Position numbers and translations under genes: made by a program. A DNA stretch of 64,000 nt from Candidatus Omnitrophota bacterium (GTDB lineage: Bacteria > Omnitrophota > Gorgyraeia > Gygaellales > Profunditerraquicolaceae). Every line of letters begins with the position of its first letter. The stretch's first letter is position 1. The stretch covers positions 414,855 through 478,854 of the forward strand of contig JBAZJY010000002.1 in NCBI GenBank assembly GCA_041651115.1. The letters are read 5' to 3'. Shown here piece by piece: positions 16,660 through 52,152 of this stretch. The notes beneath the pieces are model-generated. The model was not told the DNA's origin, made no database searches, and worked only from the letters and a program-made list of their open reading frames with translations.

Positions 16660-16807
16660 GTAAATTAGTTACTCACTGATAAAGGCAAACCCGGAGTAAT
16701 CCGGGGACGCAAAGCCAAGGGTCCTTTGAAAAAAGGACAGCCGGTTGCCAAAGGGGTAGAAGAGTCCGACTTTTATGAACCCTAAAGGCTAACCTTTAGG
16801 GTTTTTT
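16660..16807 (+). ncRNA. Candidate small RNA (about 150 nt) bounded by its own promoter and an intrinsic terminator, class unknown
   Basis: There is no ORF over 20 codons on the plus strand. Internal hairpins are cccggagtaatccggg and gtcctttgaaaaaaggac; it ends in gaaccctaaaggctaacctttagggtttttt. It lies between convergent genes. Confidence 0.45.
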
Positions 16808-27417: not shown

Positions 27418-28469
27418 ATTATATTTATAACCTAGCTACCGATAAAGATAACGGCTTACTCGCGTCATTGATAAAAATTTTCTTATATGCGCTTTCCCTC
27501 GCCTATGGCATGATCATCAGGCTGTTGATATTTTTTTATGCTCTCCGGCCTTATCAGGCGGGATGTAAAGTGATTAGCGTGGGGAATATCACTTTAGGCG
27601 GCACAGGTAAAACGCCGCTTGTTGAATATCTCGCAGCCAGGCTTAAAGGGCGCGGCCGTAAGATAGCCGTAGTTACCAGGGGTTATCTTAGCCAGGATGA
27701 GCCGCAGATGCTGGAGGCGAATTTAAGCAATGTACCGGTAATCGTAGATGCTGACAGGCGTAGGGGGATTAAGCGCGGCATAGCTGAATACGGGGTTGAT
27801 ACGGTGGTCCTGGATGACGGGTTCCAGCAATGGCGCATAAAAAAAGACCTGGATATAGTGGTGATAGATTCGCAGAATCCGTTCGGCAACCGGCAGATGA
27901 TTCCGCGCGGCATACTTCGCCAGCCGTTGTCATCGTTAAAGTCAGCGCAGGTTTTTGTCCTGACAAAAACAGACTTGGCCCCGCAGATAGACCGGCTTAA
28001 AGATTTTTTACGGGGCATTAACCCCGGGGCAGTCATTACCGAATCCCGGCACGCAGCGCTGGGATTTTACGAGCTTGGGAAAAAAGAACTCCTGGCCGCC
28101 GCAGCCGTGTTCAAGGAAAAACCCGTTGCTTTACTTTCCGGGATCGGCGATCCGGATTATTTTGCACATTCGGTAAAGGGCACGGGAATTAAAATCGGGC
28201 TGGCTTTTGAATTCCCCGATCATTACGCTTACAGCAGCCAGGATCTGGATAAAATAATAACGGCCTGCGGCGTTGAAGGCTTAGATGCCATCGTTACTAC
28301 CGAGAAAGACGCGGTGAAGCTCCGCAAATTACAAATTACAAATTCCGCCGCAGGCGGACCAGCCTACGGCTGGCACAAATTACAAATTTTTGTGTTACGC
28401 AGTGAATTACAAATTACAAAAAATGAACAAGGACTTCTGGAAAGATTATTTAAGTTGTACGGCGCTTAA
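27411..28469 (+). CDS. lpxK: Tetraacyldisaccharide 4'-kinase
   Basis: ISVGNITLGGTGKTP P-loop and TTEKDAVKL. The 3' end carries ACAAATT heptamer repeats and overlaps the next gene. Confidence 0.85.
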   Translation: MLNYIYNLATDKDNGLLASLIKIFLYALSLAYGMIIRLLIFFYALRPYQAGCKVISVGNITLGGTGKTPLVEYLAARLKGRGRKIAVVTRGYLSQDEPQMLEANLSNVPVIVDADRRRGIKRGIAEYGVDTVVLDDGFQQWRIKKDLDIVVIDSQNPFGNRQMIPRGILRQPLSSLKSAQVFVLTKTDLAPQIDRLKDFLRGINPGAVITESRHAALGFYELGKKELLAAAAVFKEKPVALLSGIGDPDYFAHSVKGTGIKIGLAFEFPDHYAYSSQDLDKIITACGVEGLDAIVTTEKDAVKLRKLQITNSAAGGPAYGWHKLQIFVLRSELQITKNEQGLLERLFKLYGA

Positions 28470-30375: not shown

Positions 30376-32462
30376 ACATTTTACAAATATTGCCCGAACT
30401 GAACGTCGGGGGGGTTGAGACGGGTACGCTTGACATGGCAAAGTACCTGGTCAGGCTTGGCCATAAAGCAGTAGTCGTTTCAAATGGCGGGAATCTGGTC
30501 AAGGAGCTTGAGGCCTTGGGCGCTGTGCATTACCAGCTTCCCGTGCATAAGAAATCTTTTTCCACGATGATCAAATGCGTGCCTAAACTGGCGGAGATCA
30601 TTAAAAAGGAGAAGATAGATATTGTCCACGCGCGTTCGCGTGTGCCGGCCTGGATTGCTTATTTTGCCGCAAGAAAATCCGGCTGTTTGTTTATCACTAC
30701 TTGCCATGGTTACTATAAGAAGCATCCGTTTAGTTATGTAATGGGCTGGGGAAAGCGAGTTATTTGCCCCAGTAACGTGATTGCCCGGCATATGATCGAT
30801 GATTTCAACGTTCCGCACGAACGGATAAAGCTGGTTCCGCGCAGCGTGGACCTGGAAAAATTCAAATTCGTCAGCCCGGATAAAAAGCGCAAAGCGGAGT
30901 TTAACGTCGGCATAATCGGCAGGATCACGCCGATAAAAGGCCACTTGCATTTTATCAAGGCAATGGCAAAGCTTAGCCGGTCAGTGCCTCGGCTTAAGGT
31001 CTGGATAATCGGAGATGCGCCTGCTTCACGCGAAGCCTATAAAGAACAAATACAGGTCCTGGCGCGCAGGCTCGGCCTCTGGAATTGCACGCAGTTTCTG
31101 GGTACGCAGCGCGATATCCCGTCTATACTTTCCCATCTTGACCTTTTGGTGCTTCCTACGACCACGCAAGAGGCATTTGGCAGGGTGATTATCGAGGCGC
31201 AGGCAGCAGGTGTACCGGTGATCGCCACAAAGGTCGGCGGCATAGTGGATGTTATTGACGACGGAATAACCGGCATGCTTGTTCCGCCGGCTGACCCTTC
31301 GGCAATAGCAGAGGCGGCGTTGAAGATATTTAGGGACAGTGATTTTTCCGCCAGGCTTGCTGCGGCAGCCCTGGAAAAAGCAAAAGACAGGTATAACGTG
31401 GAATTAATGGTGAATAATACCATTGAAGTCTATCAGCAGGCTTTGGATAACTTTAATATACTGGTGATAAAATTAAGCTCGCTGGGCGACGTGATACTTT
31501 CCAGCGCGGCTTTGCGGGCGATCCGGAAAAAGTTCGGTCCGAATTACAAGATCGCCGTACTGGCGGGCAATGAATCAAAAGACGTGCTTTTTTCCTGCCC
31601 GTATATAGACGAGCTGCTCGTTTGCGATCTAAAGAGCAGGGATAAGGGATTAGCCGGTATCTGGAAGCTCGGCCGGGTTTTAAGAAAAAAGAATTTTGAC
31701 ATTGTTATTGACCTGCAGAATAACCGCGCAAGCCATATACTTTCTGCCTTGAGCCTGGCAATAAACCGCTACGGCTATGCCAACAAAAAATTATCTTTCT
31801 TGCTTAACCACCGGATAAAAAACGAAAAACCGGCGATCGATCCGGTCAGCCATCAGTTCAAGGTGCTTGAGATGCTGGGCATAAAACTGGAAGACCCCGC
31901 GTTAGAATTATGGCCGTCGCAGGAAGATGCGCGTTACATCGATGAATTCCTGAGCGCTCAATGGATGAGCGCAACCCAGAAGATCGCGGGGATAAATATA
32001 AACGCCAGCCAGCGCTGGTTAAGCAAGAGCTGGCCGCTTGCCCAGATGACAAAACTATGCGAAGAGCTGTCGCGGCTGGACATGCGGGTGGTTATTACCG
32101 GCACAAAGGATGACGCCCAAAAAGCGGATCTCCTTGCCGGCTCCCTGAAGAACTCGCCGGTGATAAATGCCTGCGGTAAGACAACGGTTAACCAACTGGC
32201 GTGCCTGATCAAAAAATGCGACGTCTATATTTCCGCAGATTCCGCTCCTTTGCATATTACCGCGGCAATGAAAACGCCCTTCATCGCTTTATTCGGGCCG
32301 ACTGACCCGGCCAGGCACCTGGCGCCGGCAAAGGATTATGTGCTGATAAAAAAGGATCTGCATTGCAGCCCTTGTTATAAGCCGAAATGCGGGAATAAGA
32401 AGTGTATGAACCTGATTACGGCAGAAGAAGTGCTGGCAGCAGTAAAGAAATTATTAAAATGA
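30372..32462 (+). CDS. Fusion of a GT4-family glycosyltransferase (N) and a GT9 heptosyltransferase-like domain (C)
   Basis: N: ILPELNVGGVETG plus an EX7E-type C-terminus of the GT4 half. C: ILVIKLSSLGDVILSSAALRAI...HCSPCYKPKCG, typical of WaaC/WaaF. Confidence 0.8.
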   Translation: MNILQILPELNVGGVETGTLDMAKYLVRLGHKAVVVSNGGNLVKELEALGAVHYQLPVHKKSFSTMIKCVPKLAEIIKKEKIDIVHARSRVPAWIAYFAARKSGCLFITTCHGYYKKHPFSYVMGWGKRVICPSNVIARHMIDDFNVPHERIKLVPRSVDLEKFKFVSPDKKRKAEFNVGIIGRITPIKGHLHFIKAMAKLSRSVPRLKVWIIGDAPASREAYKEQIQVLARRLGLWNCTQFLGTQRDIPSILSHLDLLVLPTTTQEAFGRVIIEAQAAGVPVIATKVGGIVDVIDDGITGMLVPPADPSAIAEAALKIFRDSDFSARLAAAALEKAKDRYNVELMVNNTIEVYQQALDNFNILVIKLSSLGDVILSSAALRAIRKKFGPNYKIAVLAGNESKDVLFSCPYIDELLVCDLKSRDKGLAGIWKLGRVLRKKNFDIVIDLQNNRASHILSALSLAINRYGYANKKLSFLLNHRIKNEKPAIDPVSHQFKVLEMLGIKLEDPALELWPSQEDARYIDEFLSAQWMSATQKIAGININASQRWLSKSWPLAQMTKLCEELSRLDMRVVITGTKDDAQKADLLAGSLKNSPVINACGKTTVNQLACLIKKCDVYISADSAPLHITAAMKTPFIALFGPTDPARHLAPAKDYVLIKKDLHCSPCYKPKCGNKKCMNLITAEEVLAAVKKLLK

Positions 32463-33553
32463 AGATATTATTATTGGCAAATCATCTTAATGTCGGCGGG
32501 ATCACCAGCTATGTTTATTCTCTTGGTTGCGGAATGAAAGCGGCCGGGCATTATGTTTATGTGGCTGCTTCCGGAGGCGAAACATTGCCGAAATTCAAAG
32601 CCGCAGGCATAGAGTTTATTCGCTTGCCGTTGAACACGAAAGCGGAAGCCGGCCCTAAAGCGCTGTTTAGCCTATTCAGGCTTTTACTTCAGCTGCGGGA
32701 GAAAAAGATCGATATTATGCATGCAAATACCCGCGTTACGCAGGTAGTAGCTTGTCTGGCTGCCAGGTTTTCCGGCGTGCCTTTTGTGTCCACCTGCCAC
32801 GGATTTTTTAAGACAAGAGTTTTTCGTAGAGTATTCCCGTGCTGGGGCAAAAGGGTCATTGCCGTCAGCCAACAGGTTAAGGAACATTTAACGGATGATT
32901 TCCGGGTTGATGCGGGAAGAATAAGAGTTATTGCCAACGGCATAGATATAGCAAAATTCAAGGCCATGGACCCGGGATCAAAAAATGAGGCAAAAATAAA
33001 ATTAGGATTAGGCAGCGGCCCGGTGATCGGCATCGTTGCCCGGCTCTCCGATGTCAAGGGCCACGTTTATCTTATTGAGGCAATGCAAAAGGTGCTTCTG
33101 GATATTCCCGCTGCGCAGTTGGTGATTGCCGGAGATGGAAAAATGAAAGATACGTTAGTGTCCTTAAGCAAACGGCTGGGTATCGCGGAAAAAGTATTTT
33201 TTGTCCCTACGCTTGCGGATACCCTGGACGTCCTTTCAGCCTTAGACCTTTTTATTCTGCCTTCGCTTAAGGAAGGCCTGGGCCTGAGCCTGATGGAAGC
33301 AATGGCCTGCGGCATCTGCAGCATCGGCTCCAATATCGGCGGCATAAAGACTTTGATACAAGACGGATATAGCGGGATTTTAGTCGAGCCTAAAAACATA
33401 AACGCGATTTATCGCGCCATAACCGGGCTTTTAAAAGATCCCGCGAAGAGGGAAATGCTCGGCGCAAACGGCCGGGAATTTATTACCGGCAGGTTTTCTC
33501 TTGAACAGATGGTATCTTCTACAGAAGGGGTTTATAAAGAATGTTTAAGTTAA
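32459..33553 (+). CDS. GT4-family glycosyltransferase
   Basis: MKILLLANHLNVGGITSYV ... EGLGLSLMEAMACG. Confidence 0.8.
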   Translation: MKILLLANHLNVGGITSYVYSLGCGMKAAGHYVYVAASGGETLPKFKAAGIEFIRLPLNTKAEAGPKALFSLFRLLLQLREKKIDIMHANTRVTQVVACLAARFSGVPFVSTCHGFFKTRVFRRVFPCWGKRVIAVSQQVKEHLTDDFRVDAGRIRVIANGIDIAKFKAMDPGSKNEAKIKLGLGSGPVIGIVARLSDVKGHVYLIEAMQKVLLDIPAAQLVIAGDGKMKDTLVSLSKRLGIAEKVFFVPTLADTLDVLSALDLFILPSLKEGLGLSLMEAMACGICSIGSNIGGIKTLIQDGYSGILVEPKNINAIYRAITGLLKDPAKREMLGANGREFITGRFSLEQMVSSTEGVYKECLS

Positions 33554-34341
33554 CGCGTAAAGTTTTAATAACTTTTTTGGCCGCAGTATTGCTGTTTACG
33601 GCTGCATTCTTCGGTTTTATGCGGGACAAATATATTATCCCGGTATTTATGTACCATTCTGTAAGCCCGCAGCAAGACCCGGGTTCTAATGCGCTTATCG
33701 TGACGCCGCAGGCATTTGAAAGGCAGATGCGCTTCCTAAAAAATTTCAGCTATAATGTCATGCCCCTTGAGGCAGTAGCGGAACTGATCAGAAATAAAAA
33801 GAAGCTTCCGCCGCGGTTGGTTGTCATAACCCTTGACGACGGATACAAGGATAATTATACCTATGCCTTTCCGGTGTTAAAAAAATACGCGCTTCCGGCA
33901 ACAATATTCATCATTACCGGCGAAGTGGGCAGGCCGGACAGGTTAAGCTGGGGCGAGATTAAGGAAATGCAATCTTCCGGGTTTATTACTTTTGGCAGCC
34001 ACTGCCTCGGCCCGGAACCGCTGATAAACATTAAATCCGGAGATGAAGTGAAGAGGCAGATATTTGAATCAAAAAGGATCCTGGAAGAAAAATTAGGCGC
34101 GCCGGTTGCGATGTTCAGTTATCCCGAAGGAAAATTCAACTTTAAAATAAAGCAACTGGTGGCCGATGCCGGATATAAGCTTGCGGTAGCCACAACCCCG
34201 GGCATAAAATATCCTGCTTCAGACGTTTTCCTGATAAAGCGGCTGCGTATTTCCGAAAACGCCGCCAATCCGTTCGTGCTTTGGTTCAAGGCAAGCGGAT
34301 TTTATAGTTTTTTCCGGGAGAGCCGGGATAAATATAAGTAA
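33541..34341 (+). CDS. Polysaccharide deacetylase (NodB homology domain)
   Basis: VITLDDGYKDNY and ATIFIITGEVG NodB motifs, with an N-terminal TM helix. Confidence 0.8.
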   Translation: MFKLTRKVLITFLAAVLLFTAAFFGFMRDKYIIPVFMYHSVSPQQDPGSNALIVTPQAFERQMRFLKNFSYNVMPLEAVAELIRNKKKLPPRLVVITLDDGYKDNYTYAFPVLKKYALPATIFIITGEVGRPDRLSWGEIKEMQSSGFITFGSHCLGPEPLINIKSGDEVKRQIFESKRILEEKLGAPVAMFSYPEGKFNFKIKQLVADAGYKLAVATTPGIKYPASDVFLIKRLRISENAANPFVLWFKASGFYSFFRESRDKYK

Positions 34342-35395: not shown

Positions 35396-35416
35396 TTTAT
35401 AACTAATTATGTATTT

Positions 35417-35590
35417 CTATTTTGCGTCTGCCTTGTCTTGTTTCTCGCAGGGACGCTCGCCCCGCCCAGCGTGCGGGGCTTCGCTCGGGAGTCGGCTTTC
35501 GCTCTGCCCTAGCGCATACTCGGGCAACCGTGCCCGCTCAAGCCTCCTACGCCCTGCTCAAAACAAAACAAATCAGCCGCAAAATTATAT
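35417..35590. repeat. Family-C structured repeat, copy 2 (about 175 nt)
   Basis: It shares the core and TIR-like ends with 4543..4765 but lacks the 46-nt insert. It is intergenic between GT9 genes. Confidence 0.8.
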
Positions 35591-35600
35591 GGCATAACAT

Positions 35601-37640
35601 ATGGAGGACATTAAGAAAATATTATTCATTACTTTAAGCAACATCGGTGATGTTGTGTTGACCTTGCCGGCGCTGGACCATTTGCGGCAGAAGTTCCCGT
35701 CGGCAAAGGTCTCGGTGATGTGCGGCCAGCGGGCAAGGGAAATATTTGAAGGTGCTCCTTTTATTGAGGAAACGGTCATTTTTGATAAACACGCGGCGTT
35801 AAAAGAAAAAATAAGGCTGTTCAAAGCCTTAAAAGCCAAGAAGTTTGACGCCGTGATCGACCTGCGCAATTCTTTGTTCGGTTTGGGCCTGCCGGCAAAA
35901 TACAAGGTCCCGGTTTTGCGAAAACTTCCTGCGGGTTTGGCGCATATGAAGGATAAGCACTTGTATAAAGTAGCGGGAAAGCAGGCTGCAGATAGCCTGC
36001 GGCATTCGCTTTATATCTCTGCCGCTGATGAAGACTGCGTCGGCCGGATATTAAAGGACAGCCATATTGCTGTCGATGACAGATTGATAGTTATTGCGCC
36101 GGGAAGCCGCAGTCACACCAAGAAATGGGCTAAGGAAAAATTTGTGGAGTTGATTAATCTATTGGCTGGCGAAACAGGGGTAAAAATAGTATTAGCCGGA
36201 GATAAAGCTGATTTGGATACTGCCGATTATATTGCCGCTGCCTGCGGGGCAAAGGCGATAAACCTCTGCGGAAAAACTAATTTGCGCGAGCTCGCCTGCC
36301 TTTTAAAAAGATCAACGCTGCTAGTGACTAATGACAGCGCAGCCTTGCACATAGCGGGTTATTTAGATATCCCGGTTGTCGCGGTATTCGGCATAACCAA
36401 TGAAGTTAAGTATGGCCCGTGGTCACAGAGGCGCGCAGTGGTCAAAAGGGATATTTTCTGCCGGCCATGTGAAAAGGCGCAGTGCAGATTTGGTACTTTG
36501 AAATGTATGCAGCTGATAAAAGTGGAAGACGTATTAAGAGCAGCTAAAGAACTCTTATTCCAGCACCCAGCACCTAACACCAAACACCTGAAACCTGATT
36601 TCCGGCGTATACTTGTTGTGCGCACAGACAGGATCGGCGATGTGCTCCTTTCCACGCCTGTGTTTAAGGCGTTGCGGCAAGCCTATCCGAGCGCTTATAT
36701 TGCCGCGATGGTCAGCCCCTACGCTAAAGAGATCGTTGAAGGCAATCCTTATATTGACGACGTCATAATCTACGATAAAGATTTTAAGCACCGGAGCTGG
36801 AGCAGGTCAATGAAATTCGCTTCCCGGCTGCGTAAAAAGCATTTTGACCTGGCGCTTATCCTGCATCCTATAAACCGCAGCCACCTGATCGCCTTCTTTG
36901 CCGGCATAAAAAGAAGGATCGGTTTTGACAGGAAGCTGGCCTTTTTGCTTACCGATAAAATAAAACACGTTAAGCAGGAAGGAGATAGGCATGAATTGGA
37001 ATATACGCTTGACCTCGTAAGATACTTAGGCATTGAACCGCAGGATAAACAGCCGTTCATGCCGTTAAAGCCTGATTCGGAAAAGTGGGCTGATGAATTG
37101 TTCAGCCGTGAGTCCTTGACAGCGCAGGATAGGTTGTTGGCGATAAATCCCGCTGCCAGCTGCCCGTCTAAGATCTGGCCGGCAGAAAGGTTTGCCGAAA
37201 CAGCGGATAAACTGGCGGATAAATACGGCTTTAAGGTATTGATCTTTTCCGGGCCGAAAGATACAAAATTAGCGGAAACAGTCTTAGGCCATATGCAACA
37301 CCGGGTGATCAACCTTGCGGGAAAAACATCCGTCAGCCAGCTTGCCAGCGCGTTAAAGCGGTGCAGCCTGTTTATTTCCAATGATTCCGGGCCGGTGCAT
37401 ATTGCCGCGGCCGTGGGAGTGCCGGTGATCTCCATTTTCGGCAGGAACCAGAAGGGTTTGAGCCCGAAAAGATGGGGGCCGGTGGGGCCCCTGGATATTA
37501 TTTTGCACCGGCAGGCAGGATGCATCGAATGCCTGGCGCATAATTGCCTGAAAGATTTTGCCTGTTTAAAGTTGATCAAGGTTGACGACGTTGTTAAGGC
37601 AGCAGATACTATCTTGGAAGCACGTAGAGATCATGGTTAA
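35601..37640 (+). CDS. Tandem double GT9 heptosyltransferase (two complete GT9 modules in one 679-aa protein)
   Basis: Module 1 is ILFITLSNIGDVVLTLPAL...DSAALHIAG...CRPC. Module 2 is ILVVRTDRIGDVLLSTPVF...DSGPVHIAAAVG...CIEC. Confidence 0.82.
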   Translation: MEDIKKILFITLSNIGDVVLTLPALDHLRQKFPSAKVSVMCGQRAREIFEGAPFIEETVIFDKHAALKEKIRLFKALKAKKFDAVIDLRNSLFGLGLPAKYKVPVLRKLPAGLAHMKDKHLYKVAGKQAADSLRHSLYISAADEDCVGRILKDSHIAVDDRLIVIAPGSRSHTKKWAKEKFVELINLLAGETGVKIVLAGDKADLDTADYIAAACGAKAINLCGKTNLRELACLLKRSTLLVTNDSAALHIAGYLDIPVVAVFGITNEVKYGPWSQRRAVVKRDIFCRPCEKAQCRFGTLKCMQLIKVEDVLRAAKELLFQHPAPNTKHLKPDFRRILVVRTDRIGDVLLSTPVFKALRQAYPSAYIAAMVSPYAKEIVEGNPYIDDVIIYDKDFKHRSWSRSMKFASRLRKKHFDLALILHPINRSHLIAFFAGIKRRIGFDRKLAFLLTDKIKHVKQEGDRHELEYTLDLVRYLGIEPQDKQPFMPLKPDSEKWADELFSRESLTAQDRLLAINPAASCPSKIWPAERFAETADKLADKYGFKVLIFSGPKDTKLAETVLGHMQHRVINLAGKTSVSQLASALKRCSLFISNDSGPVHIAAAVGVPVISIFGRNQKGLSPKRWGPVGPLDIILHRQAGCIECLAHNCLKDFACLKLIKVDDVVKAADTILEARRDHG

Positions 37641-37762
37641 GTTATTGGGTTAAGGTTAAGAAGCCAGTATGGTAGTTAGGTTAGGGTTAAGTATTAATGA
37701 CCTAACCATAACCTTTAAACCATACCGGCATCCTAGCCCTAACCTTAACCATAACCTAACTA
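37641..37762. repeat. Family-A palindromic intergenic repeat, copy 2
   Basis: gttattgggttaaggttaagaagccagtatggt...ccataccggcatcct...aaccttaacc. Confidence 0.85.
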
Positions 37763-37766
37763 AAAA

Positions 37767-38744
37767 ATGAAGAAGATATTATTGATTCTTGCCTTATTTT
37801 TCTACTTTTCTCCCTGTCTTGCTGCGGACTTTGGCGCTTCGGATATGAAGAAGATATCCGACGAGCTTAAACGCGACCGGCAGGAGATGGAAAGGACCCG
37901 TCAGGCAATGAAGCAGGCAGAATGGGAAAAAAGACAGGTCGATGACGCCATAAAACGCCAGCGCGATGAGGCAAAACAATTACAGCGGCAGCTGGAAGAA
38001 GAAAAGCGCAGCGAACTTGCCAGGAGAAAGGCTGAAGAGGTCCGCAAGCCGAACAAATTCGTTGAGTTTATTGCCAGCTGGCCGGTACAATTCGCGTTTT
38101 ATTTCCTGGTCTTTGCCGGGTTCGGCACGCTGCTTTACTTTAAGGTCCTGGCGCCGCGTAAGAAGCCGGCTGAAGAAGAGCCTACCATTGAAGAGATAGG
38201 GCCGGATGTTTTGGCGGCAGCGACTCATTGGAGGTTCCGGGAAAAGGACTTTAAGAAATACCAGATGAAGCTTTCCGCTTTGGCCGATGCCAAAGTTATC
38301 GACGTGGATTCCGCGGAATTCAAAAAATATTTTATCCGGGATATGGTCATGACGGAGATCCTTTTTCAGGCTGCCGTGAGCAGGAAACTTGACAGCGATG
38401 CGGTATTTTTGGCCGAACTGAACAAGTATAAAGATTACGTATCGGGCTTAAATAAAGAAGGCGCGGCTTTTTTGAAATTATTGAATGATTATAAATCAAG
38501 TTTTGTCCCTGCCGCAGGCCAAAGGCCCGCCTATGCCGCTTATTATAAAGGCTTTTTGGACCTGCTCATGATCTTAAATGCTAACGAGGAGACCGAAATA
38601 TTTGAATTATACGAGAGGTTCCTTTTGATAAATAAGCTCGCCGGCTCAGGCGACGCTGCCGCCATGCAGCATGCGCTTGACGTCATCATCAATGAATTTA
38701 AATTAGCGCACAACGTGATCATCAAAGAGGAGGCTGCGGCATAG
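37767..38744 (+). CDS. Hypothetical signal-peptide protein with a periplasmic R/E/Q-rich coiled coil, one TM helix and a cytoplasmic helical domain
   Basis: 325 aa; signal MKKILLILALFFYFSPCLA; TM at FAFYFLVFAGFGTLLYF. I recognise no family. Confidence 0.5.
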   Translation: MKKILLILALFFYFSPCLAADFGASDMKKISDELKRDRQEMERTRQAMKQAEWEKRQVDDAIKRQRDEAKQLQRQLEEEKRSELARRKAEEVRKPNKFVEFIASWPVQFAFYFLVFAGFGTLLYFKVLAPRKKPAEEEPTIEEIGPDVLAAATHWRFREKDFKKYQMKLSALADAKVIDVDSAEFKKYFIRDMVMTEILFQAAVSRKLDSDAVFLAELNKYKDYVSGLNKEGAAFLKLLNDYKSSFVPAAGQRPAYAAYYKGFLDLLMILNANEETEIFELYERFLLINKLAGSGDAAAMQHALDVIINEFKLAHNVIIKEEAAA

Positions 38745-38749
38745 CATCC

Positions 38750-40108
38750 ATGGAAAAAAGATCAGTCTCTTTGATTTTGCCGATGTTTAACGAGAAAGAA
38801 TACCTGGAAAAAACGGTTTCCACGGTCATTTCGGTTTTAGAGCCGTCATTCCCGGACTTTGAAGTAATCGTGGTTGATGACGCCAGTAACGACGGATCCG
38901 GGATGGTCGCCGAGCGGCTGGCTGCCGGGGACAGCCGGATCAGGGTCATTCATCATAAGAAAAACCGTAAGCTGGGCGGAGTTTTAAAGACCGGGTTTTC
39001 CGCGGCTTCAAAAGAGATCGTGGTCTATACGGATATGGATATGCCGTTTGATTTGTCGCAGTTAAGCGCGGTAATCCCCCTGGTTTTTGACTCCGATATA
39101 GTAATCGGCTGCCGTATAGGTAAAAGAGAGTCCTTCCTGCGCGTAGTTTATTCCTGGGCATACAATAAGTTGATAAATGTCATATTTAAGACCCGGGTCA
39201 AAGATGTGAATTTTGCCTTAAAAATATTTAAAAGAAAAATTTTAAACGAGATTAAACTGAAGTCCGAAGGCTCGTTCATAAATGCCGAATTCCTGGCGAA
39301 AGCACGAAAGCTTGGATACTCGATAAAAGAGGTAGAAATTGATTACACGCCGCGGACCTACGGTATTTCCCGGTTGTCCACGCCGCCGGTTATATGTAAA
39401 GTATTATACGAGATCGTAAAGTTTTATCCTGAGATCATCCGGTTCTCTAAAAAAAAGGCGATCTATGGCAGGCTGCGTGATTTTTATAAAAATGCCGGGC
39501 GCAAGGCAAAAATCTATAATTTCCTGCGTTTTAAGACCTGCCCTTTTGACAAGATAGAAAAATTCATCCCGAAGACAGGCAGTATATTGGATTTGGGATG
39601 CGGCACGGGCCTCTTGCTTAATACTTTGCGGCTGGAACAGGACAAACGGGCATTATTTGGTTTTGACCGGGACGCAAGAAAAATTGGGATTGCCGCGATC
39701 AGCCTGAATGAAAGCAGGGACATAGTTTTTAAAAAAGCGGACATTAGCGGCAGCAGCCTTGATTTGCCTAAAGCCAGCGCCATTATCTTAACGGATGTCA
39801 TGTATTGCCTGGATCATGAGAAAAAAATTGGCCTGTTGGAAAAATGTTTTACTGCGTTAGATGCCGGCGGCACGCTGCTGATCAAGGATATTGATAGAAG
39901 CTTCAATATAAAGTTTTTCTGGGCCTTCCTGCAGGAGTTCCTGGCGGTAAAAATCTTCGGCCTGACTTCTGCCGACGGGATTTATTTTGAAAATAAAAAG
40001 CAGTACCTTTCACTCCTGAAAAAAAGCGGTTTTATCGCTAATCAGTATTTTGACCTGAGCAAAGGGTATTTCTATCCTCATATTCTATATGCCGGAAAAA
40101 AACCGTAG
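38750..40108 (+). CDS. GT2-family glycosyltransferase (HpnI/ArnC-like, polyprenyl-phosphate sugar transferase type) fused to a class-I SAM-dependent methyltransferase domain
   Basis: N: SLILPMFNEKEYL, VVDDASNDGS, YTDMD. C: ILDLGCGTGLL (motif I) and LLIKDID. Confidence 0.75.
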   Translation: MEKRSVSLILPMFNEKEYLEKTVSTVISVLEPSFPDFEVIVVDDASNDGSGMVAERLAAGDSRIRVIHHKKNRKLGGVLKTGFSAASKEIVVYTDMDMPFDLSQLSAVIPLVFDSDIVIGCRIGKRESFLRVVYSWAYNKLINVIFKTRVKDVNFALKIFKRKILNEIKLKSEGSFINAEFLAKARKLGYSIKEVEIDYTPRTYGISRLSTPPVICKVLYEIVKFYPEIIRFSKKKAIYGRLRDFYKNAGRKAKIYNFLRFKTCPFDKIEKFIPKTGSILDLGCGTGLLLNTLRLEQDKRALFGFDRDARKIGIAAISLNESRDIVFKKADISGSSLDLPKASAIILTDVMYCLDHEKKIGLLEKCFTALDAGGTLLIKDIDRSFNIKFFWAFLQEFLAVKIFGLTSADGIYFENKKQYLSLLKKSGFIANQYFDLSKGYFYPHILYAGKKP

Positions 40109-41525
40109 AAAAATACTCTTTATCAATCCTCCCTTAAGCATAAATCAACGTTATGGAATGTTGGGGCAAGCCGGGGGCAGCGAACCTCCCCTGGGTTTAT
40201 GCTATTTGGCTGCCGCGGTGAGAAAAGAAGGTTTTACAGCCGGAATAATTGATGCGCAGGCGCAAAGACTCGGGTTAAAAGAAACAATGGAGCTGATTAA
40301 GGCCTTTGAGCCGTGTTATGTAGGCATTACGGCTTCGACAATGGCCATAGAAAGCGCTGCGGCCTTGGCGCGGGATATAAAAGTGTCGGACCCCGGCATT
40401 AAAATTATAATCGGCGGCTGCCATATCAGCTCTTTACCCGCGGAAACTTTTGCTGAATACAAATTTTTTGATATCGGGGTAATCGGTGAAGGGGAGGATA
40501 CGGTCCGGGAGCTGCTCTTGGCCCTGGAGAACAATATGGGCTTAAAAGATATCAAGGGTATCGCCATAAGAGAAAACGGGAGTGTTTATTTATCGTTGCC
40601 GCGGCCAAGGATAAAAGACCTGGACAGTTTAGCCTATCCTGCTTTTGATCTGCTGCCTGACATACGCAGATTCTATAGGTTACCGGCGCAAAGTTTGGCT
40701 GATAGCCGCAGTTTTTCGTTAGTCACTTCCCGCGGCTGCATGGGAAAGTGTTCTTTTTGCGACAAAAAAGTTTTTGGAAATTATATAAGCATGCACAGTG
40801 CTGAATATATAACAGAAATGATTCGCATCTTAAATCAGGATTACAAAATAACCAATATAATGTTTGAGGACGATAATTTTATGGCCTCCAGGCAAAGGCT
40901 GAAGGACATAGCCGATTTAATGGCTAAAAAAAAGCTTAAGACCCGCTGTACGGTTTTAGCGCGGATGGATAACGTAGACGAAGAATCGTTAAAAATATTA
41001 AAAGGCATGGGTTGCTGGCAGATATCATACGGCATTGAAAGCGGCTCCCAAAGGATTTTAGATTTTTATAATAAAGGGATTACTGTCCAGCAAATAAGAA
41101 ACGTGGCAGGATTGACCAAAAGCGCCGGTTTAAAAGTTAAATGCTTTTTTATCTGGGGTAACCCAACGGAAGACCGGGAATCCATCAGGGAAACCGCTGA
41201 TCTTGTAAAAAATTCCGGTGTTGATGATATTTCGGTAACTTTCTTTACGCCTTTTCCCGGCTCAGAGATATGGCCGGATATAAGATCTTACGGGGATTTT
41301 GATAAAAACTGGGAAAAAATGAGCTGTTTTGAATTGGTTTTTAGGCCTTACGGGTTGGAAAAAGAATATTTAATCAACAGCAGGAAAAAAATCTTGAGAG
41401 ATTTTTATTTTCGGCCTAAACTTATATTTTCTTATTTGATCCGTATCAGATCGCTGGCGCAACTTAAAGAACTGATTTTAAGCGCCTATTGTTTGTTCCG
41501 TTATATATTAAAAGGGGTGGAATGA
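40089..41525 (+). CDS. B12-binding-domain radical SAM protein (class B; HpnJ-like)
   Basis: The N-terminal cobalamin-binding Rossmann-like region is followed by CMGKCSFC (CX3CX2C); 478 aa. Confidence 0.8.
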   Translation: MPEKNRRKILFINPPLSINQRYGMLGQAGGSEPPLGLCYLAAAVRKEGFTAGIIDAQAQRLGLKETMELIKAFEPCYVGITASTMAIESAAALARDIKVSDPGIKIIIGGCHISSLPAETFAEYKFFDIGVIGEGEDTVRELLLALENNMGLKDIKGIAIRENGSVYLSLPRPRIKDLDSLAYPAFDLLPDIRRFYRLPAQSLADSRSFSLVTSRGCMGKCSFCDKKVFGNYISMHSAEYITEMIRILNQDYKITNIMFEDDNFMASRQRLKDIADLMAKKKLKTRCTVLARMDNVDEESLKILKGMGCWQISYGIESGSQRILDFYNKGITVQQIRNVAGLTKSAGLKVKCFFIWGNPTEDRESIRETADLVKNSGVDDISVTFFTPFPGSEIWPDIRSYGDFDKNWEKMSCFELVFRPYGLEKEYLINSRKKILRDFYFRPKLIFSYLIRIRSLAQLKELILSAYCLFRYILKGVE

Positions 41526-42340
41526 GCAGGTCTTTAATCGTCAATGCCGATGATTTCGGTTTAGATAACCGGATAAACCAGGGTATAGCCGAATGCTGCT
41601 CAAGCGGGATCGTCAGGAGCATCTCGCTTGTTGCCAACGGCCCGGCATTTGAGCATGCCTTAAGCCTGGCCCGGCAAATGCCGGATACCGGCATCGGAGT
41701 GCATTTATGTTTAGTCAATGAAAAACCGCTTCTGGCCGGCATGGCCGGCCAGAACGGGTTGCTGCCGCAGGATTGTTACCGTTTATTTTTTAAGCTCTGC
41801 AGCCGGCGCTTGAACCTTTTGGATGTAGAACAGGAACTTGACGCGCAGATAAAAAAAATTTTGGACAGCGGCATAACGCCTACGCACCTTGATAGCCATC
41901 AGTATACGCATCTGATCCCTGCGATATTTGATATTGTGATGCGGCTGGGAAAGAAGTATAATATTAAATGGATACGCTGCCCGCGGGGGTGGAGGCGGGC
42001 CCGCGGCGCATCATCCGCAGACCTTTTTAAAAAAACATATCTGGCATTGTTTTCCCGCCGGCGGATAGAAGCGCTAAAAGGCAACGGCTTTCGCTGCGCC
42101 GATATTTCTTTTGGTTTTACCGGCAGTGGCCGGCTTAGTGAACAGGCGGTAAGGGAATTTTTGCAGAGATTTGGCTCCGGCATGGCGGATCTGGCTTGCC
42201 ATCCGGGATATTTACCGCAAAGCGGCAAGTACCGCGCATGGGGCTATTGCTGGGAAGAAGAAGCCGCGGTCCTTAAAAGCAAGGGCATAAGAACATTGAT
42301 TGAAAAATTGAATATTAGCCTTACCAACTATGCAGCTTAA
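41522..42340 (+). CDS. YdjC/ChbG-family carbohydrate deacetylase (HpnK-like)
   Basis: LIVNADDFGL...THLDSHQYTH pattern. The start ATG at 41522 overlaps the preceding stop. Confidence 0.75.
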   Translation: MSRSLIVNADDFGLDNRINQGIAECCSSGIVRSISLVANGPAFEHALSLARQMPDTGIGVHLCLVNEKPLLAGMAGQNGLLPQDCYRLFFKLCSRRLNLLDVEQELDAQIKKILDSGITPTHLDSHQYTHLIPAIFDIVMRLGKKYNIKWIRCPRGWRRARGASSADLFKKTYLALFSRRRIEALKGNGFRCADISFGFTGSGRLSEQAVREFLQRFGSGMADLACHPGYLPQSGKYRAWGYCWEEEAAVLKSKGIRTLIEKLNISLTNYAA

Positions 42341-44528
42341 AAAGACATTCTCTTTTTTTCATCTGTTTTTGCTCTTTCTGCTGATCGTATTTTACGGGGT
42401 GAACAATTATATTTGGCTGCATTTAAATCGTTATCCTTTTGTGGATGACGAGGCAGTGCATTTGATCTCCGCAACGCGCTATATGGAGACCCTTTCCCGG
42501 CCCGGCGCGGATATGTTTTCGGCGTTAGCCGGCGTGGACAAGCTTTACCCGCCGTTTTTCCCGTTTATAGCCTCTCTTTTTGGCCTTGCCTTTGGAGGCG
42601 GGGCTGTCAGTATTATCTTATCCAATCTCTTATTTTTATTCGGTATATTCGTTTGCCTGTATTTTATCGGATTAAAAATGGGCGACGCAAGGCTCGGGCT
42701 CCTGGCAGCGCTGATACTGTCGCTGTACCCGATGATTTTCCAGCTTGGCCGCATGTGCATGCTGGAAACCGCGTTAACTTTTACTGTAGTTGCCGCTGTC
42801 ACGGCAATGATCTATTCCGATGGCTTTAAAAGAACGAAGCCGAGCGCCCTGTTTGGGCTGATTTTCGGGCTGGGCGTCCTGACAAAACAAAGCTATGTGG
42901 TGTTGATCATCGGCCCTTTGCTGCTTATCGCGGGAGTTTCCCTTTTTAAGGGGAGTTGGCAGGACAGGAGGAGGGTGGCCGGTAATTTACTTTTATCTTT
43001 TGTAATAGGGGCAGCTGTTGCCTCTTTGTGGTATGTGCCGAATTTTAAGACAATGTTGCCTCTGGCCATAGCCGCGGCTACCGATTCGGCTTTAGTGCCG
43101 TATAACATACCGGTTTTTTCCTTCTGGTCATTTTCCTTCTACTTACGTTCGCTGGTCAACGAACAGATACTCTTTTTCTTCTTTGTGCTGCTCTTAATGG
43201 CAACCCCCGTATTTTTTAAACGGAAAAAAGATGAATTTTTCTTTCTGTTCCTCGTTTGGATCATAGTTACCTATCTTATCCGGACTTTCATCGGCAATAA
43301 ATTCCTTTATTATACTGTATCTTGCCTTCCTGCCGTGGCGCTGGTCACGGCCTGCGGCATTATGAATATGAAAAAGGATTCTTTAAGGAAGATAATAATC
43401 TGGCTTATCTTTATCGTCGGGTTTGCTCAGTATTTCCTGATTTCCTATATCCACTACGGCCATGTCAGTCTGCACATGGCTTTTCATACCGGGACCGAAA
43501 AAGACAAAAGCAGGATGTTGGATATTTTCCTGTTTCCCGGAACAGAGATCCTTGCGGGGGTAAAACATTTTCCCCGGGGCGGAAACTTCAAGCGCCTGGA
43601 GCTGGTCAACGCCATATTAAAGGGATCGCGCGGTATCATGCCGAAGATCGGGGTTTTTGGTTTTGACCCCAATTTGGAAAATAAGAAAGACCCCGGTAAA
43701 TCCGTGATCATGACCAAGCTTGATAGTTATGCCGGAGCCAATTTTGACGGCCTGAATTATTATTTATTGTCGCAGAAGATATCTTATAAGATTTTTCCGT
43801 TGAATTCCGATCTGGACATGAGGGTAAATTTTATCGTTACGCCGATCGAGCTGGAAAAGATAGACTCCGCCGATTTTAAAATTCCCATCCGGGATTTTGT
43901 GCCGGTAGAAGAATTTGCCATGCCGGATACCAGCAGCGTTTATCTATACCGGCTCAGCAAGGTAACCCCGTTTATCCTCAATTATACCCCGCAGCTTTCA
44001 CCGGAATATAAAATGTCCAGCGCCCGGATCGATATCCACAGCGCAGACATGAAATTTGCGTTTAAGGATGTTAAAAGCAACGGCGTAGCCCAGGTTGCCG
44101 AGTGGCTGCCGGAAAAAGATTGGACGAAAAGCTGGATTACGCAAATGGAACTGGTCAGTAATATGTGGCAGCAGCTGTGGATAGAATTTGTGCCGCTTGA
44201 ATCGGGTGATATGTATATACAGTTCAGGGGATCGTTTTATCCGGATAATGAATCCAACCACCATGAAGTTTATGTTGATGACGTAGCCATAGAAGGCAAG
44301 GGGCTGAAGATCGTAAACGGCAGCTTTGAAGAGCAGAACTATCTCGGTAGTCCTTTAACTTGGGATTTGCCCGTGGCATCATCCAGCCAAACTACGGAGT
44401 TGGCACGCAGCGGAAGGTGCTCGGTTCTTATTTGGCATGACAGCCCGCTGGTAAAGAAAATACCCGTAAAGGCAGGGGTGAAATACCGCCTTAGCGCGTG
44501 GTTCAAACCGTATAATCCGGTAGAATAA
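42330..44528 (+). CDS. ArnT/PMT-like (GT39/GT83) polytopic membrane glycosyltransferase with a C-terminal periplasmic beta-rich (CBM-like) domain
   Basis: About 11 predicted TM helices. A conserved acidic loop motif YPFVDDEAVHLISATRYME follows TM1. The C-terminal roughly 250 aa are soluble. Confidence 0.7.
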   Translation: MQLKKTFSFFHLFLLFLLIVFYGVNNYIWLHLNRYPFVDDEAVHLISATRYMETLSRPGADMFSALAGVDKLYPPFFPFIASLFGLAFGGGAVSIILSNLLFLFGIFVCLYFIGLKMGDARLGLLAALILSLYPMIFQLGRMCMLETALTFTVVAAVTAMIYSDGFKRTKPSALFGLIFGLGVLTKQSYVVLIIGPLLLIAGVSLFKGSWQDRRRVAGNLLLSFVIGAAVASLWYVPNFKTMLPLAIAAATDSALVPYNIPVFSFWSFSFYLRSLVNEQILFFFFVLLLMATPVFFKRKKDEFFFLFLVWIIVTYLIRTFIGNKFLYYTVSCLPAVALVTACGIMNMKKDSLRKIIIWLIFIVGFAQYFLISYIHYGHVSLHMAFHTGTEKDKSRMLDIFLFPGTEILAGVKHFPRGGNFKRLELVNAILKGSRGIMPKIGVFGFDPNLENKKDPGKSVIMTKLDSYAGANFDGLNYYLLSQKISYKIFPLNSDLDMRVNFIVTPIELEKIDSADFKIPIRDFVPVEEFAMPDTSSVYLYRLSKVTPFILNYTPQLSPEYKMSSARIDIHSADMKFAFKDVKSNGVAQVAEWLPEKDWTKSWITQMELVSNMWQQLWIEFVPLESGDMYIQFRGSFYPDNESNHHEVYVDDVAIEGKGLKIVNGSFEEQNYLGSPLTWDLPVASSSQTTELARSGRCSVLIWHDSPLVKKIPVKAGVKYRLSAWFKPYNPVE

Positions 44529-44580
44529 ATAGGGACAGACACTATTTTTCTGTAGAAAAATAGTGTCTGTCCCTATTTAT
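44529..44580 (+). terminator. Perfect 22-bp palindrome followed by a T-rich run (terminator of the LPS-core operon)
   Basis: aatagggacagacactatttttctgtagaaaaatagtgtctgtccctatttatttttc. Confidence 0.7.
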
Positions 44581-44638
44581 TTTTCTCCTATTTTTCGTTT
44601 GCTAAAGCCACTAATTTATGATAAACTGACATCTTCGT

Positions 44639-51279: not shown

Positions 51280-52152
51280 ATGAAAACCGAAGTCAAAAAA
51301 ATCGACAGCACTAAGAGAGAGATCAACATTGAAGTCAGCGGAGAGATCGTAAAGAATAAATTCGAGGAAGCGTTCAAAAAACTTAATCAGGAGGCAAAGG
51401 TTTCCGGCTTCAGGCCGGGCCATGTGCCGCGCGATATCCTGGAAAAGAATTTTTCTTCCGCTGCCAACGAGTTTGTGCTCAAGGAACTGATCCCGGAGGT
51501 TTACGGCAAGGCCCTGGAAAAGGAATCGCTGGACGTCATTGATATGCCCGACATTAGCGACGTAAAGCTGGACAGGAACACGCTGTCGTTTAAGGCCAGC
51601 GTAGAAGTCAGCCCCGAGATAGACATTAAAAATTATAAAGGCATAAAGGTCGGTTACAAAAAAGTAGAAGTGACCCTTGATGATATAAAGCGGTTTGTGG
51701 ATTCCCTTAAGGAATCAAGGCATATAGATACGGTAGACGATGCCTTTGCCCGCAGCCTCGGCTATCCAAGCCTGTCCCAACTTGAGAAGTTCGTGGAAAC
51801 GCAGCTTTATATCCAGAAGCAGAATCAGGAACATAAGAGGATAGAGAATGATCTGATTGAAAACCTGACCAAAGGCCTTGATTTTAAGATACCGCAGTCA
51901 ATGGTGAGCCGTCAGTTGCAGGAAATGTCACGCCAGGCAAAACTGGATATGGCGATCAAGGGAATGCCGCGCGAAGAGATTGATAAGCGGGAAAAGCAAA
52001 TCTCCGACGAATTGGCTCCCGAGGCAAAAAAGCAGGTTAAGATATACCTGGTATTGTCGGAGATCGCCCGCAAGGAGAATATACCCCTTGACGATCACAT
52101 GCCGCAAAGGGTTTTGGAATTTTTGTTGAAGGAAGCAGACTGGAAGGAATAG
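51280..52152 (+). CDS. tig: Trigger-factor-like chaperone apparently lacking the PPIase domain
   Basis: The N-terminal ribosome-binding domain (GFRPGHVPRDILEKNF) is joined directly to a C-terminal arm-like domain. 290 aa, against about 430 for canonical Tig. It is upstream of clpP, as for tig. Confidence 0.65.
   Translation: MKTEVKKIDSTKREINIEVSGEIVKNKFEEAFKKLNQEAKVSGFRPGHVPRDILEKNFSSAANEFVLKELIPEVYGKALEKESLDVIDMPDISDVKLDRNTLSFKASVEVSPEIDIKNYKGIKVGYKKVEVTLDDIKRFVDSLKESRHIDTVDDAFARSLGYPSLSQLEKFVETQLYIQKQNQEHKRIENDLIENLTKGLDFKIPQSMVSRQLQEMSRQAKLDMAIKGMPREEIDKREKQISDELAPEAKKQVKIYLVLSEIARKENIPLDDHMPQRVLEFLLKEADWKE

Follow-up and report, generated by a model that had tools for sequence, protein, structure and literature searches.

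A conserved module of a GT2-methyltransferase fusion, a B12 radical-SAM enzyme, a YdjC deacetylase and a GT-C transferase in a lipopolysaccharide-core locus of an Omnitrophota bacterium, with a putative role in amino-sugar decoration

Introduction

Cationic amino-sugar decoration of lipid A, with 4-amino-4-deoxy-L-arabinose (Ara4N), galactosamine (GalN) or glucosamine (GlcN), determines how a bacterium resists cationic peptides and how the innate immune system recognizes it. To our knowledge, the pathways known for lipid A amino sugars consist of a synthase, a de-N-acylase and a GT-C transferase only. In Francisella, the YdjC-superfamily deacetylase NaxD converts undecaprenyl-P-GalNAc to undecaprenyl-P-GalN, and lipid A GalN depends on it (PMC11279074); in Bordetella, lipid A carries GlcN only if lgmA, lgmB and lgmC are present (PMC4993483), and LgmB is an ArnT-like GT-C enzyme that transfers to lipid A (PMC11401268). 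Here we describe a locus that shares this skeleton, in a stretch of 64,000 nucleotides from Candidatus Omnitrophota bacterium (assembly GCA_041651115.1, contig JBAZJY010000002.1, positions 414,855 to 478,854), hereafter the window. Four plus-strand open reading frames (ORFs) occupied positions 38750-44528 of the window exactly, encoding a GT2 glycosyltransferase fused to an S-adenosylmethionine (SAM)-dependent methyltransferase, a B12-binding radical-SAM enzyme, a YdjC-family deacetylase and a GT-C transferase (Table 1).

A sequence-only reading of the window had named the first three proteins an hpnI/hpnJ/hpnK-like triad, after the hopanoid side-chain enzymes, and had proposed that they serve, by a logic like that of the Arn pathway, to place a remodeled amino sugar or aminocyclitol on lipid A or the lipopolysaccharide (LPS) core, or on another envelope glycolipid. 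Its domain calls (GT2 plus methyltransferase, B12 radical-SAM, YdjC and PMT-like transferase) were correct by Pfam. The hopanoid label did not survive; the carrier-lipid logic did, in a form closer to the Lgm and NaxD systems than to Arn.

Conservation of the Five-Domain Module

The five domains formed one conserved module. Species-representative genomes and metagenomes were scanned, the ORFs of every locus were searched with iterated profiles, and partner genes were counted at up to 6 kb from the radical-SAM gene, in the 20 closest relatives outside this locus and in 140 distant ones. A YdjC gene lay near the radical-SAM gene in 16 of the 20 close relatives versus 3 of the 140 distant ones (Fisher p = 1e-15). 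The same type of GT2 was present in 16/20 close versus 13/140 distant relatives (p = 6e-11), the methyltransferase in 14/20 versus 7/140 (p = 7e-11) and a PMT_2 gene in 11/20 versus 29/140 (p = 2e-3). PMT_2 genes flanked the module in L083, L084, L085, L170 and L172, and module loci often had two PMT_2 paralogues each.

Gene order was variable among these loci: radical-SAM, GT2-methyltransferase, YdjC in L008; YdjC, GT2, methyltransferase, PMT_2, radical-SAM in L095; and GT2, radical-SAM-YdjC, methyltransferase, PMT_2 in L089. Three kinds of gene fusion occurred (GT2 with methyltransferase, radical-SAM with YdjC, and GT2 with YdjC), the first of them, as in the window, recurring in L003, L004, L008, L009, L086 and L087. 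The carriers were metagenome-assembled genomes (MAGs) of Omnitrophota, Elusimicrobiota, Desulfobacterota and Planctomycetia, all uncultured, and one module copy was found on an 11-kb contig binned as a Lokiarchaeia MAG. Elsewhere, the Pfam-labeled surroundings of the module were surface-polysaccharide loci with Wzm/Wzt (the latter with Wzt_C), WecA-like proteins, GT4 glycosyltransferases, Wzy_C and WecG.

Comparison with the Hopanoid Enzymes

The window proteins were not HpnI, HpnJ or HpnK. The curated cut-offs for these families are 577.6 bits for HpnJ (TIGR03471), 310 for HpnI (TIGR03472) and 232.6 for HpnK (TIGR03473), and genuine HpnJ, HpnI and HpnK proteins from a Paraburkholderia graminis plasmid, located via a YdjC search, were run against the same models as positive controls. 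All three controls passed. The window radical-SAM enzyme reached 181.3 bits on the HpnJ model compared with 843.2 for the control, and the window YdjC protein reached 151.5 bits on the HpnK model compared with 403.4. HpnI was absent from the best 25 of the 33 families matched by the GT2-methyltransferase protein at E <= 0.01 (control, 495.6 bits), and BLASTP found no similarity between that protein and genuine HpnI (E = 3.8). The profile search against the HpnI, HpnJ and HpnK models that had been suggested as a check therefore left every window protein below its curated cut-off, and with it fell the label of an hpnI/hpnJ/hpnK-like triad.

What resemblance remained between the radical-SAM enzyme and HpnJ was generic, since relatives of the enzyme that are not linked to YdjC scored equally or higher on the HpnJ model (186-226 bits). 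The enzyme was 25% identical to genuine HpnJ and scored 153 bits on the BchE model, and its closest module relative had a BchE score at least equal to its HpnJ score. A tblastn search of plasmids with the radical-SAM enzyme for a genuine HpnJ was set aside, its top match lying on an Azoarcus plasmid in an unrelated, fatty-acid-like context. The genomic setting pointed the same way. The sequence-only reading had seen no squalene-hopene cyclase (SHC) or other hpn gene, and our scan agreed: none was present among the ORFs scanned in the 64-kb window (most of those of at least 150 residues, all housekeeping), the DxDDTA motif was absent from every frame, and no shc or hpn gene was present in the inspected module loci L083-L085, L170 and L172. 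In a genome survey, the TIGRFAM domains of HpnI and HpnJ were confined to genomes that also have SHC and HpnH (bioRxiv 10.1101/2025.07.29.667474). Where proteins of this module in MAGs bear automated "ChbG/HpnK" or HpnJ-like names, these should not be taken to indicate the synthesis of hopanoid side chains, a point of consequence when biomarkers are interpreted.

Domain Assignments of the Module Proteins

The fusion of GT2 to a class-I methyltransferase, pointed out by the sequence-only reading, was real: Pfam placed Glycos_transf_2 at residues 7-168 (90 bits) and Methyltransf_23 at residues 267-428 (42 bits). The best sequence matches of the GT2 domain in the PDB were Pyrococcus DPMS (5mlz, residues 4-234) and ArnC (9hwj, 9bhc and 8vxh, residues 4-223), with GtrB (5ekp) further down the list, so that its best solved relatives were all polyprenyl-phosphate sugar synthases. 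Against Escherichia coli ArnC, it was 24% identical over residues 4-223 (E = 1e-16), with D95-x-D97 aligned with the ArnC motif. On these matches, the domain is a member of the DPM1/ArnC/GtrB-type family; by the equivalog cut-offs that it missed (below), it is an orthologue of none of the named enzymes tested. In the methyltransferase domain, Methyltransf_23, Methyltransf_31 and Methyltransf_25 all exceeded the Pfam cut-off and motif I was present, marking it as class I. It also gave a sub-threshold match to NodS (15.6 bits), as did, weakly, its orthologue in L170. NodS N-methylates deacetylated glucosamine; we treat the resemblance as an analogy, and it does not amount to evidence for N-methylation.

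The radical-SAM enzyme matched PF02310 (B12-binding, 78.6 bits) and PF04055 (Radical_SAM, 75.7 bits) and carried the CxxxCxxC motif as CMGKCSFC at residue 217, which by profile and motif makes it a class B (B12-binding) radical-SAM enzyme. Its best solved sequence relative was the methyl-coenzyme M reductase (MCR) glutamine methylase MgmA (9ccb, 67 bits). Homologues numbered 1223 at E < 1e-20, many of the nearest being fused to a YdjC domain, and in a neighbor-joining tree the radical-SAM enzymes linked to YdjC formed essentially one clade. The identical protein in the NCBI record (P0001) has 455 residues and starts at Met24, preceded here by residues that include KILFINPPL. These 23 N-terminal residues (40089-40157, plus strand) were conserved in homologues, with P15 invariant in the homologue alignment; ATG 40089 was therefore taken as the start, and the deposited gene model probably lacks the true N-terminus. 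No hydrophobic or transmembrane (TM) segment was detected in the GT2-methyltransferase, radical-SAM and YdjC proteins, and all three are therefore predicted to be cytoplasmic or peripheral.

In the wider radical-SAM family (30-44% identity), tandem arrays with two to five paralogues of B12 radical-SAM genes, often beside a small GT2 gene, were seen in Patescibacteria, Nanoarchaeota/Woesearchaeota, Planctomycetota and others (L173, L174, L051, L061, L066 and L113 among the loci). These arrays were without YdjC, and some of their members were fused to a different class-I methyltransferase. Such methyltransferase-radical-SAM fusions were considered as a Rosetta stone for the module and rejected: their methyltransferase was 22% identical to that of the window, and their place in arrays without YdjC assigned them to the wider family rather than to the module.

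The YdjC protein matched PF04794 over the full profile (198 bits; cut-off 29.7) and had the NADDFG and HLDSHQYTH motifs; by profile and by its metal and acid-base residues, it is assigned to the YdjC/ChbG superfamily of deacetylases. The mechanical ORF begins at TTG 41489; gene callers chose ATG 41522 (MSRSLIVNADDFG...), which is almost certainly the true start. The protein was 28% identical to genuine HpnK and about 31% identical to ChbG, scoring 141.5 bits on the ChbG model (cut-off 227). The radical-SAM-YdjC fusion P0019 has a YdjC domain that is 40% identical to the window protein, and the two are judged orthologous. A related arrangement was observed on a Sphingomonas parapaucimobilis plasmid (NZ_CP155749.1; L169:4335-7792), on which genes for a GT-A glycosyltransferase and a ChbG/HpnK-family (YdjC) protein overlap, a divergent GT87 (GT-C) gene adjoins the pair and no radical-SAM gene is present. 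Sphingomonas has glycosphingolipids in place of LPS, and this locus looks like another case of the synthase, YdjC deacetylase and GT-C logic.

The fourth protein matched PMT_2 (PF13231) with 39.2 bits (cut-off 26.1) and PMT (PF02366) with 24.5 bits (cut-off 22.7). Its core comprised about 11-13 predicted TM helices (residues 1-377), the first periplasmic loop bearing a DDE motif at residues 39-41, and a periplasmic domain of alpha/beta type (residues 379-545); these features assign it to the PMT_2/GT39-like GT-C fold. The full-length AF2 model (pLDDT 45.8, from a six-sequence alignment) was too poor for a fold search, and a profile comparison with E. coli ArnT was used instead. In this hhalign comparison, columns 108-352 aligned with ArnT columns 97-340 at a probability of 84.6% (E = 6.9e-6), the homology covering about 220 columns of the TM region.

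The C-terminal extension of this transferase, another feature that had been picked out from the sequence, was also real: homologues end at about 545 residues, and just two close relatives share residues 546-732 with the window protein. The extra domain has no Pfam model. An exhaustive HMMER search of 1.84 billion representative proteins found 153 relatives (P0127-P0274), most of them stand-alone proteins of about 190 residues or the ends of large proteins that carry CE4, GH5, GH10 or GH42 domains, one of them with an adjacent CBM_4_9. Its predicted model was a confident beta-sandwich with no close solved structure. The domain is a candidate new carbohydrate-binding module family, a putative assignment that would fit a glycan acceptor.

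Proposed Pathway and Alternative Explanations

We consider it probable, if well short of certain, that the module is an amino-sugar decoration system of the Arn/Lgm/NaxD type, operating on a carrier lipid and extended by two tailoring enzymes. At the cytoplasmic face, the GT2 domain would move an N-acetyl-hexosamine from a nucleotide sugar onto polyprenyl phosphate, as its homology suggests, and the YdjC protein would strip the N-acetyl group, as its family and the NaxD and LgmC precedents suggest. Still in the cytoplasm, the B12 radical-SAM enzyme would alter the lipid-linked amino sugar at an unactivated carbon, most likely by C-methylation, as with most characterized B12 radical-SAM enzymes, and the fused class-I methyltransferase would add an N- or O-methyl group. 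Both of these steps should precede flipping, since both need cytoplasmic SAM. The carrier would then be flipped, and in the periplasm the GT-C protein would, as its family suggests, hand the tailored cationic sugar to an envelope glycan, its lectin-like C-terminal domain perhaps aiding glycan binding. Where a group in a published sequence network of these enzymes has a characterized member, C-methyltransferases are always found in that group (PMC12931638). Because the GT-C protein needs the product as a glycosyl donor with an anomeric phosphate, C-methylation is favored here over a ring contraction of the HpnJ type. The position of the module between the waaA-lpxK-lpxL-heptosyltransferase genes and the kds/lpt genes suggested the LPS inner core or lipid A as acceptor, for this genome alone, because elsewhere the module sits in O-antigen-like loci. 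A more specific version, in which the radical-SAM enzyme methylates or ring-rearranges polyprenyl-P-GlcN and the GT-C protein places the resulting N/O-methylated cationic (pseudo-)sugar on LPS core, lipid A or O-antigen, is put forward tentatively and is, we think, somewhat doubtful in its details.

Several observations weigh against this proposal. The sequence-only reading had advised comparison with ArnC and ArnT, and the answer was divided: the relationships themselves were supported by the alignments given above, but on the named equivalog models the GT2 domain scored 52 against a cut-off of 529 for ArnC and 41 against 370 for PpgS, and the GT-C protein had no NCBIfam match and no PDB sequence match. 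Because both proteins fell so far below the named equivalog cut-offs, homology does not fix the donor sugar or the acceptor. The likeness of the window YdjC protein to NaxD and LgmC is one of family and of context (an adjacent ArnC-type GT2 and a GT-C gene). PMT-family enzymes also O-glycosylate proteins. The acceptor that had been proposed, lipid A or core, had the setting in this genome in its favor, but waaA, lpxK, lpxL and kds genes were found in 0 of the 20 other module loci; the LPS-core setting was unique among the 21, the case for that acceptor was weaker than had been implied, and the only LPS-core gene near another module copy was a heptosyltransferase gene about 7 kb off in L005. 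The Lokiarchaeia-binned copy, which could be misbinned, would mean a carrier with no LPS. The ORF lists, in which no targeted search for one was made, showed no dedicated flippase gene, and literature searches for a YdjC-linked B12 radical-SAM module found no description. B12 radical-SAM methylases and non-methylases are, according to a 2026 review, indistinguishable by sequence or structure (PMC12931638). The domain identities, the layout of the operon, the recurrence of the five domains with their fusions and the separation from the hopanoid families are findings; the pathway steps, the identity of the sugar, what the radical-SAM enzyme does to it, where it is methylated and which acceptor receives it are offered as proposals drawn from sequence.

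The alternatives differ in how much of this they dispute. That four unrelated sugar-metabolism genes came to adjoin one another by chance inside a large LPS cluster is an exceedingly improbable account, even though the envelope loci of uncultured anaerobes abound in genes for GT2 enzymes, methyltransferases and radical-SAM enzymes and many distant relatives of the radical-SAM enzyme lie in unrelated paralogue arrays: the window genes overlap one another, and the association recurs over several phyla with differing gene orders, three kinds of fusion and an enrichment of p = 1e-15. It is also very improbable that the locus is an ordinary HpnI/HpnJ/HpnK triad making bacteriohopanetetrol cyclitol ether, its shc and remaining hpn partners lying at another site in the genome. 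The order of GT2, B12 radical-SAM and YdjC resembles hpnI-J-K, and the top NCBIfam names were HpnJ and HpnK; against these stand the three cut-offs missed widely while genuine controls pass, the HpnI comparison by BLASTP, the absence of shc and hpn genes from the window and the inspected module loci, the restriction of TIGRFAM HpnI and HpnJ to genomes with SHC and HpnH, and the company of the module, which travels with glycan genes and a GT-C transferase (PMT_2 near at least 11/20).

Two further accounts keep most of the module's logic and change its end. HpnJ-like chemistry may act on a non-hopanoid lipid, with GlcNAc placed on a membrane lipid or polyprenyl phosphate, deacetylated by YdjC and ring-contracted by the radical-SAM enzyme to an aminocyclitol; the methylated cyclitol-lipid head group would stay in the membrane, and the GT-C protein would be a separate matter. 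The radical-SAM-YdjC fusions, which mirror the consecutive HpnK-then-HpnJ steps (PMC13459092), the loci with no PMT_2 within 6 kb (L005, L010, L086 and L137) and the best NCBIfam matches (HpnJ, 181 bits; HpnK, 151 bits) agree with such an account, which we nevertheless regard as quite unlikely: the HpnJ similarity is generic at 25% identity, the GT2 is of the ArnC/DPMS type and not the HpnI type, and a ring-contracted cyclitol phosphate would cease to be a glycosyl donor, yet a GT-C gene is found in at least 11 of the 20 loci and overlaps the YdjC gene in the window. Less remote, if still unlikely, is the same carrier-lipid logic with an acceptor other than LPS, either protein (PMT-type O-glycosylation of surface or S-layer proteins) or another envelope polymer, the position within the LPS-core locus then being incidental. 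In Pfam, the transferase best matches two families of protein O-mannosyltransferases, PMT_2 and PMT, several loci have two PMT_2 paralogues, suggesting more than one acceptor site, and the missing lipid A/Kdo genes in the 20 other loci and the archaeal-binned copy would find a ready explanation. This is countered by the packing of the module, on the same strand, between LPS-core and kds/lpt genes here, by the O-antigen-type polysaccharide loci with Wzt_C and Wzy_C elsewhere, by an extra C-terminal domain akin to domains on carbohydrate-active enzymes, and by the taxonomically assigned carriers, all of diderm phyla save for one short contig. Decoration of an envelope glycan by way of a carrier lipid is the reading that we prefer.

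Locus Layout and Neighboring Features

The coordinates of the module and its immediate surroundings are given in Table 1. The genes had been described as translationally coupled by 4-bp overlaps; they were indeed tightly packed, but only the radical-SAM/YdjC junction overlaps by 4 nucleotides (ATGA), the GT2-methyltransferase/radical-SAM and YdjC/PMT junctions overlapping by 20 and 11 nucleotides. A 20-bp perfect hairpin followed by a T-run, starting 3 nucleotides past the GT-C stop codon, is, by its sequence, a strong terminator and marks the predicted 3' end of the transcription unit. Upstream of the module lay waaA, lpxK, an extended lpxL, GT4 and GT9 transferases and a CE4 deacetylase; downstream lay a GSU2086-family gene, an hldE kinase domain, kdsB/A/D/C and lptC/B. 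The module sat tightly between these LPS-core and kds/lpt genes, all on the same strand. Coupling to the upstream LPS genes had likewise been claimed, and the gene content was as stated, but gaps of 126 nucleotides (37641-37766) and 205 nucleotides (35396-35600) precede heptosyltransferase genes, and an ORF of 325 residues lies between.

This ORF ends 5 nucleotides upstream of the GT2-methyltransferase gene and is probably co-transcribed with the module. NCBIfam and Pfam gave no match for it, and it was confined to two identical copies of the locus (L001 and L002), being found in no other module locus; it is outside the conserved module and unrelated to it.

Table 1. Coordinates of the module genes, their domains and adjacent features (positions in the window).
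Feature	Position	Strand	Details
325-aa ORF	37767..38744	+	signal/TM segment, charged coiled-coil region, second TM aa 107-129
GT2-methyltransferase fusion	38750..40108	+	452 aa
GT2 domain, polyprenyl-phosphate sugar synthase type	38750-39454	+	aa 1-235, D43-D44, D95-x-D97
Class-I SAM methyltransferase domain	39485-40108	+	aa 246-452, LDLGCGTG motif at ~281
B12-binding (class B) radical-SAM enzyme	40089..41525	+	478 aa, predicted cytoplasmic
YdjC-family carbohydrate deacetylase	41522..42340	+	272 aa
GT-C (PMT_2 / GT39-GT83-like) putative polyprenyl-phosphate-sugar-dependent transferase, whole gene	42330-44528	+	732 aa
GT-C core	42330..43964	+	PF13231, PF02366, ArnT alignment, hydrophobic segments
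Extra all-beta domain of GT-C	43965..44528	+	aa 546-732, putative carbohydrate-binding module
Intrinsic terminator	44531..44584	+	terminator scan and the sequence itself

Other features of the window were noted. The G+C content was 0.44-0.455 over the GT2-methyltransferase, radical-SAM and YdjC genes (38000-42000) and about 0.48 in the flanks, a small difference, compatible with the module having been inserted among the LPS genes. Just 5' of the 325-residue ORF (37636-37770, plus strand), intergenic GGTTAAG/CTTAACC-like repeats were present, and the segment folds as one long imperfect hairpin (minimum free energy -47.5 kcal/mol; z = -5.3 relative to shuffles). Having no T-run, it is not a classic terminator; it may be a repeat element or have a regulatory role as a structure. 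A second glycosyltransferase and deacetylase pair lay within the LPS locus at 32402-34341 (plus strand), a GT4 gene overlapping a CE4 polysaccharide deacetylase gene; the GT4 weakly matched N-acetylglucosaminyl phosphatidylglycerol synthase, its CE4 partner had a PgaB-like N-terminal domain, and the pair may make another de-N-acetylated cationic envelope sugar. Odd fusions of LPS genes occurred at 28390-30375, 30372-32462 and 35601-37640 (plus strand): an LpxL with a C-terminal extension of about 350 residues matching Mito_fiss_Elm1, a GT4 fused to a GT9 heptosyltransferase (696 residues) and a tandem double GT9 protein (679 residues).

Further from the module, Rfam matched the c-di-GMP-I-GGC riboswitch variant RF03167 at 16675-16753 (plus strand; 68.4 bits, gathering score 59), between a Macro-NUDIX gene (15622-16548, plus strand) and a minus-strand DEAD/DSHCT helicase gene (16977-18854), with no plus-strand ORF of at least 150 residues 3' of the match until 18915. 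At 51280-52152 (plus strand), a trigger-factor ORF of 290 residues matched the 410-position model in two stretches and may be a truncated or frameshifted tig or a short variant.

Comparison with Known Systems

If the more specific version set out above is true, radical-SAM tailoring would for the first time be known to act on envelope sugars still bound to their carrier lipid, and these uncultured anaerobes (Omnitrophota, Elusimicrobiota, Desulfobacterota and Planctomycetia) would possess an LPS decoration of a new class. A conserved pathway with a radical-SAM enzyme and a methyltransferase would widen the chemistry possible at the carrier-lipid stage, and one clade of the B12 radical-SAM superfamily, which is very large and mostly uncharacterized, would gain its first assigned function.

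In hopanoid tailoring, as in the pathway proposed here, lipid-linked glucosamine is the substrate of enzymes from three groups (glycosyltransferase, YdjC deacetylase, B12 radical-SAM), and among named NCBIfam models the window radical-SAM and YdjC proteins score best on HpnJ and HpnK. They differ in that the window GT2 is unrelated to HpnI, the hopanoid gene context is lacking and the window adds a GT-C transferase and a methyltransferase. The chemistry of HpnJ itself rests on knockout inference (PMC13459092). For the radical-SAM step, the closest chemical precedent is provided by GenK, GenD1 and Fms7 of aminoglycoside biosynthesis, which are among the characterized methylases of sp3 carbons (Csp3) (PMC12931638). 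Like the step proposed here, these class B radical-SAM C-methyltransferases act on unactivated carbons of glucosamine-derived rings; the likeness is one of chemistry, and their substrates are soluble pseudo-oligosaccharides, not carrier-lipid sugars.

With the Arn pathway (ArnC/ArnD/ArnT), the module shares a GT2 of the same subfamily, a de-N-acylation that would likewise take place on the carrier lipid and a homologous GT-C transferase, and the Arn-like, carrier-lipid logic of the sequence-only reading was supported by the polyprenyl-phosphate sugar synthases nearest to its GT2, by the ArnT profile match and by the conservation of the module. The pathways differ in that the Arn sugar is Ara4N, made by ArnA and ArnB, and neither the ArnA/ArnB nor the ArnE/F flippase genes are present here. 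The YdjC protein had been cast as an ArnD analogue, a role that we reassign: ArnD is annotated as a deformylase and belongs to the CE4 family, not YdjC, and NaxD and LgmC fit instead.

The nearest match is thus to Francisella FlmF2/NaxD/FlmK and Bordetella LgmA/LgmC/LgmB, in which a GT2 loads an N-acetyl-hexosamine on undecaprenyl phosphate, a YdjC enzyme frees the amine and a GT-C enzyme transfers the sugar to lipid A. The three-enzyme logic is shared, as are the three protein families at family level. By analogy, the skeleton of GT2, YdjC and GT-C in the window is a known pathway type, closer to Lgm/NaxD than to Arn. The earlier statement that the combination matches no characterized pathway is therefore to be narrowed: GT2, YdjC and an ArnT-like enzyme together correspond to the lipid A GalN/GlcN pathway (PMC11279074, PMC4993483), but the radical-SAM enzyme and the methyltransferase are unmatched. 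The Francisella and Bordetella systems are without both of these enzymes, their product is plain GalN or GlcN, and the window GT-C protein bears an extra lectin-like domain. What is new relative to the known pathways is the B12 radical-SAM enzyme together with the methyltransferase.

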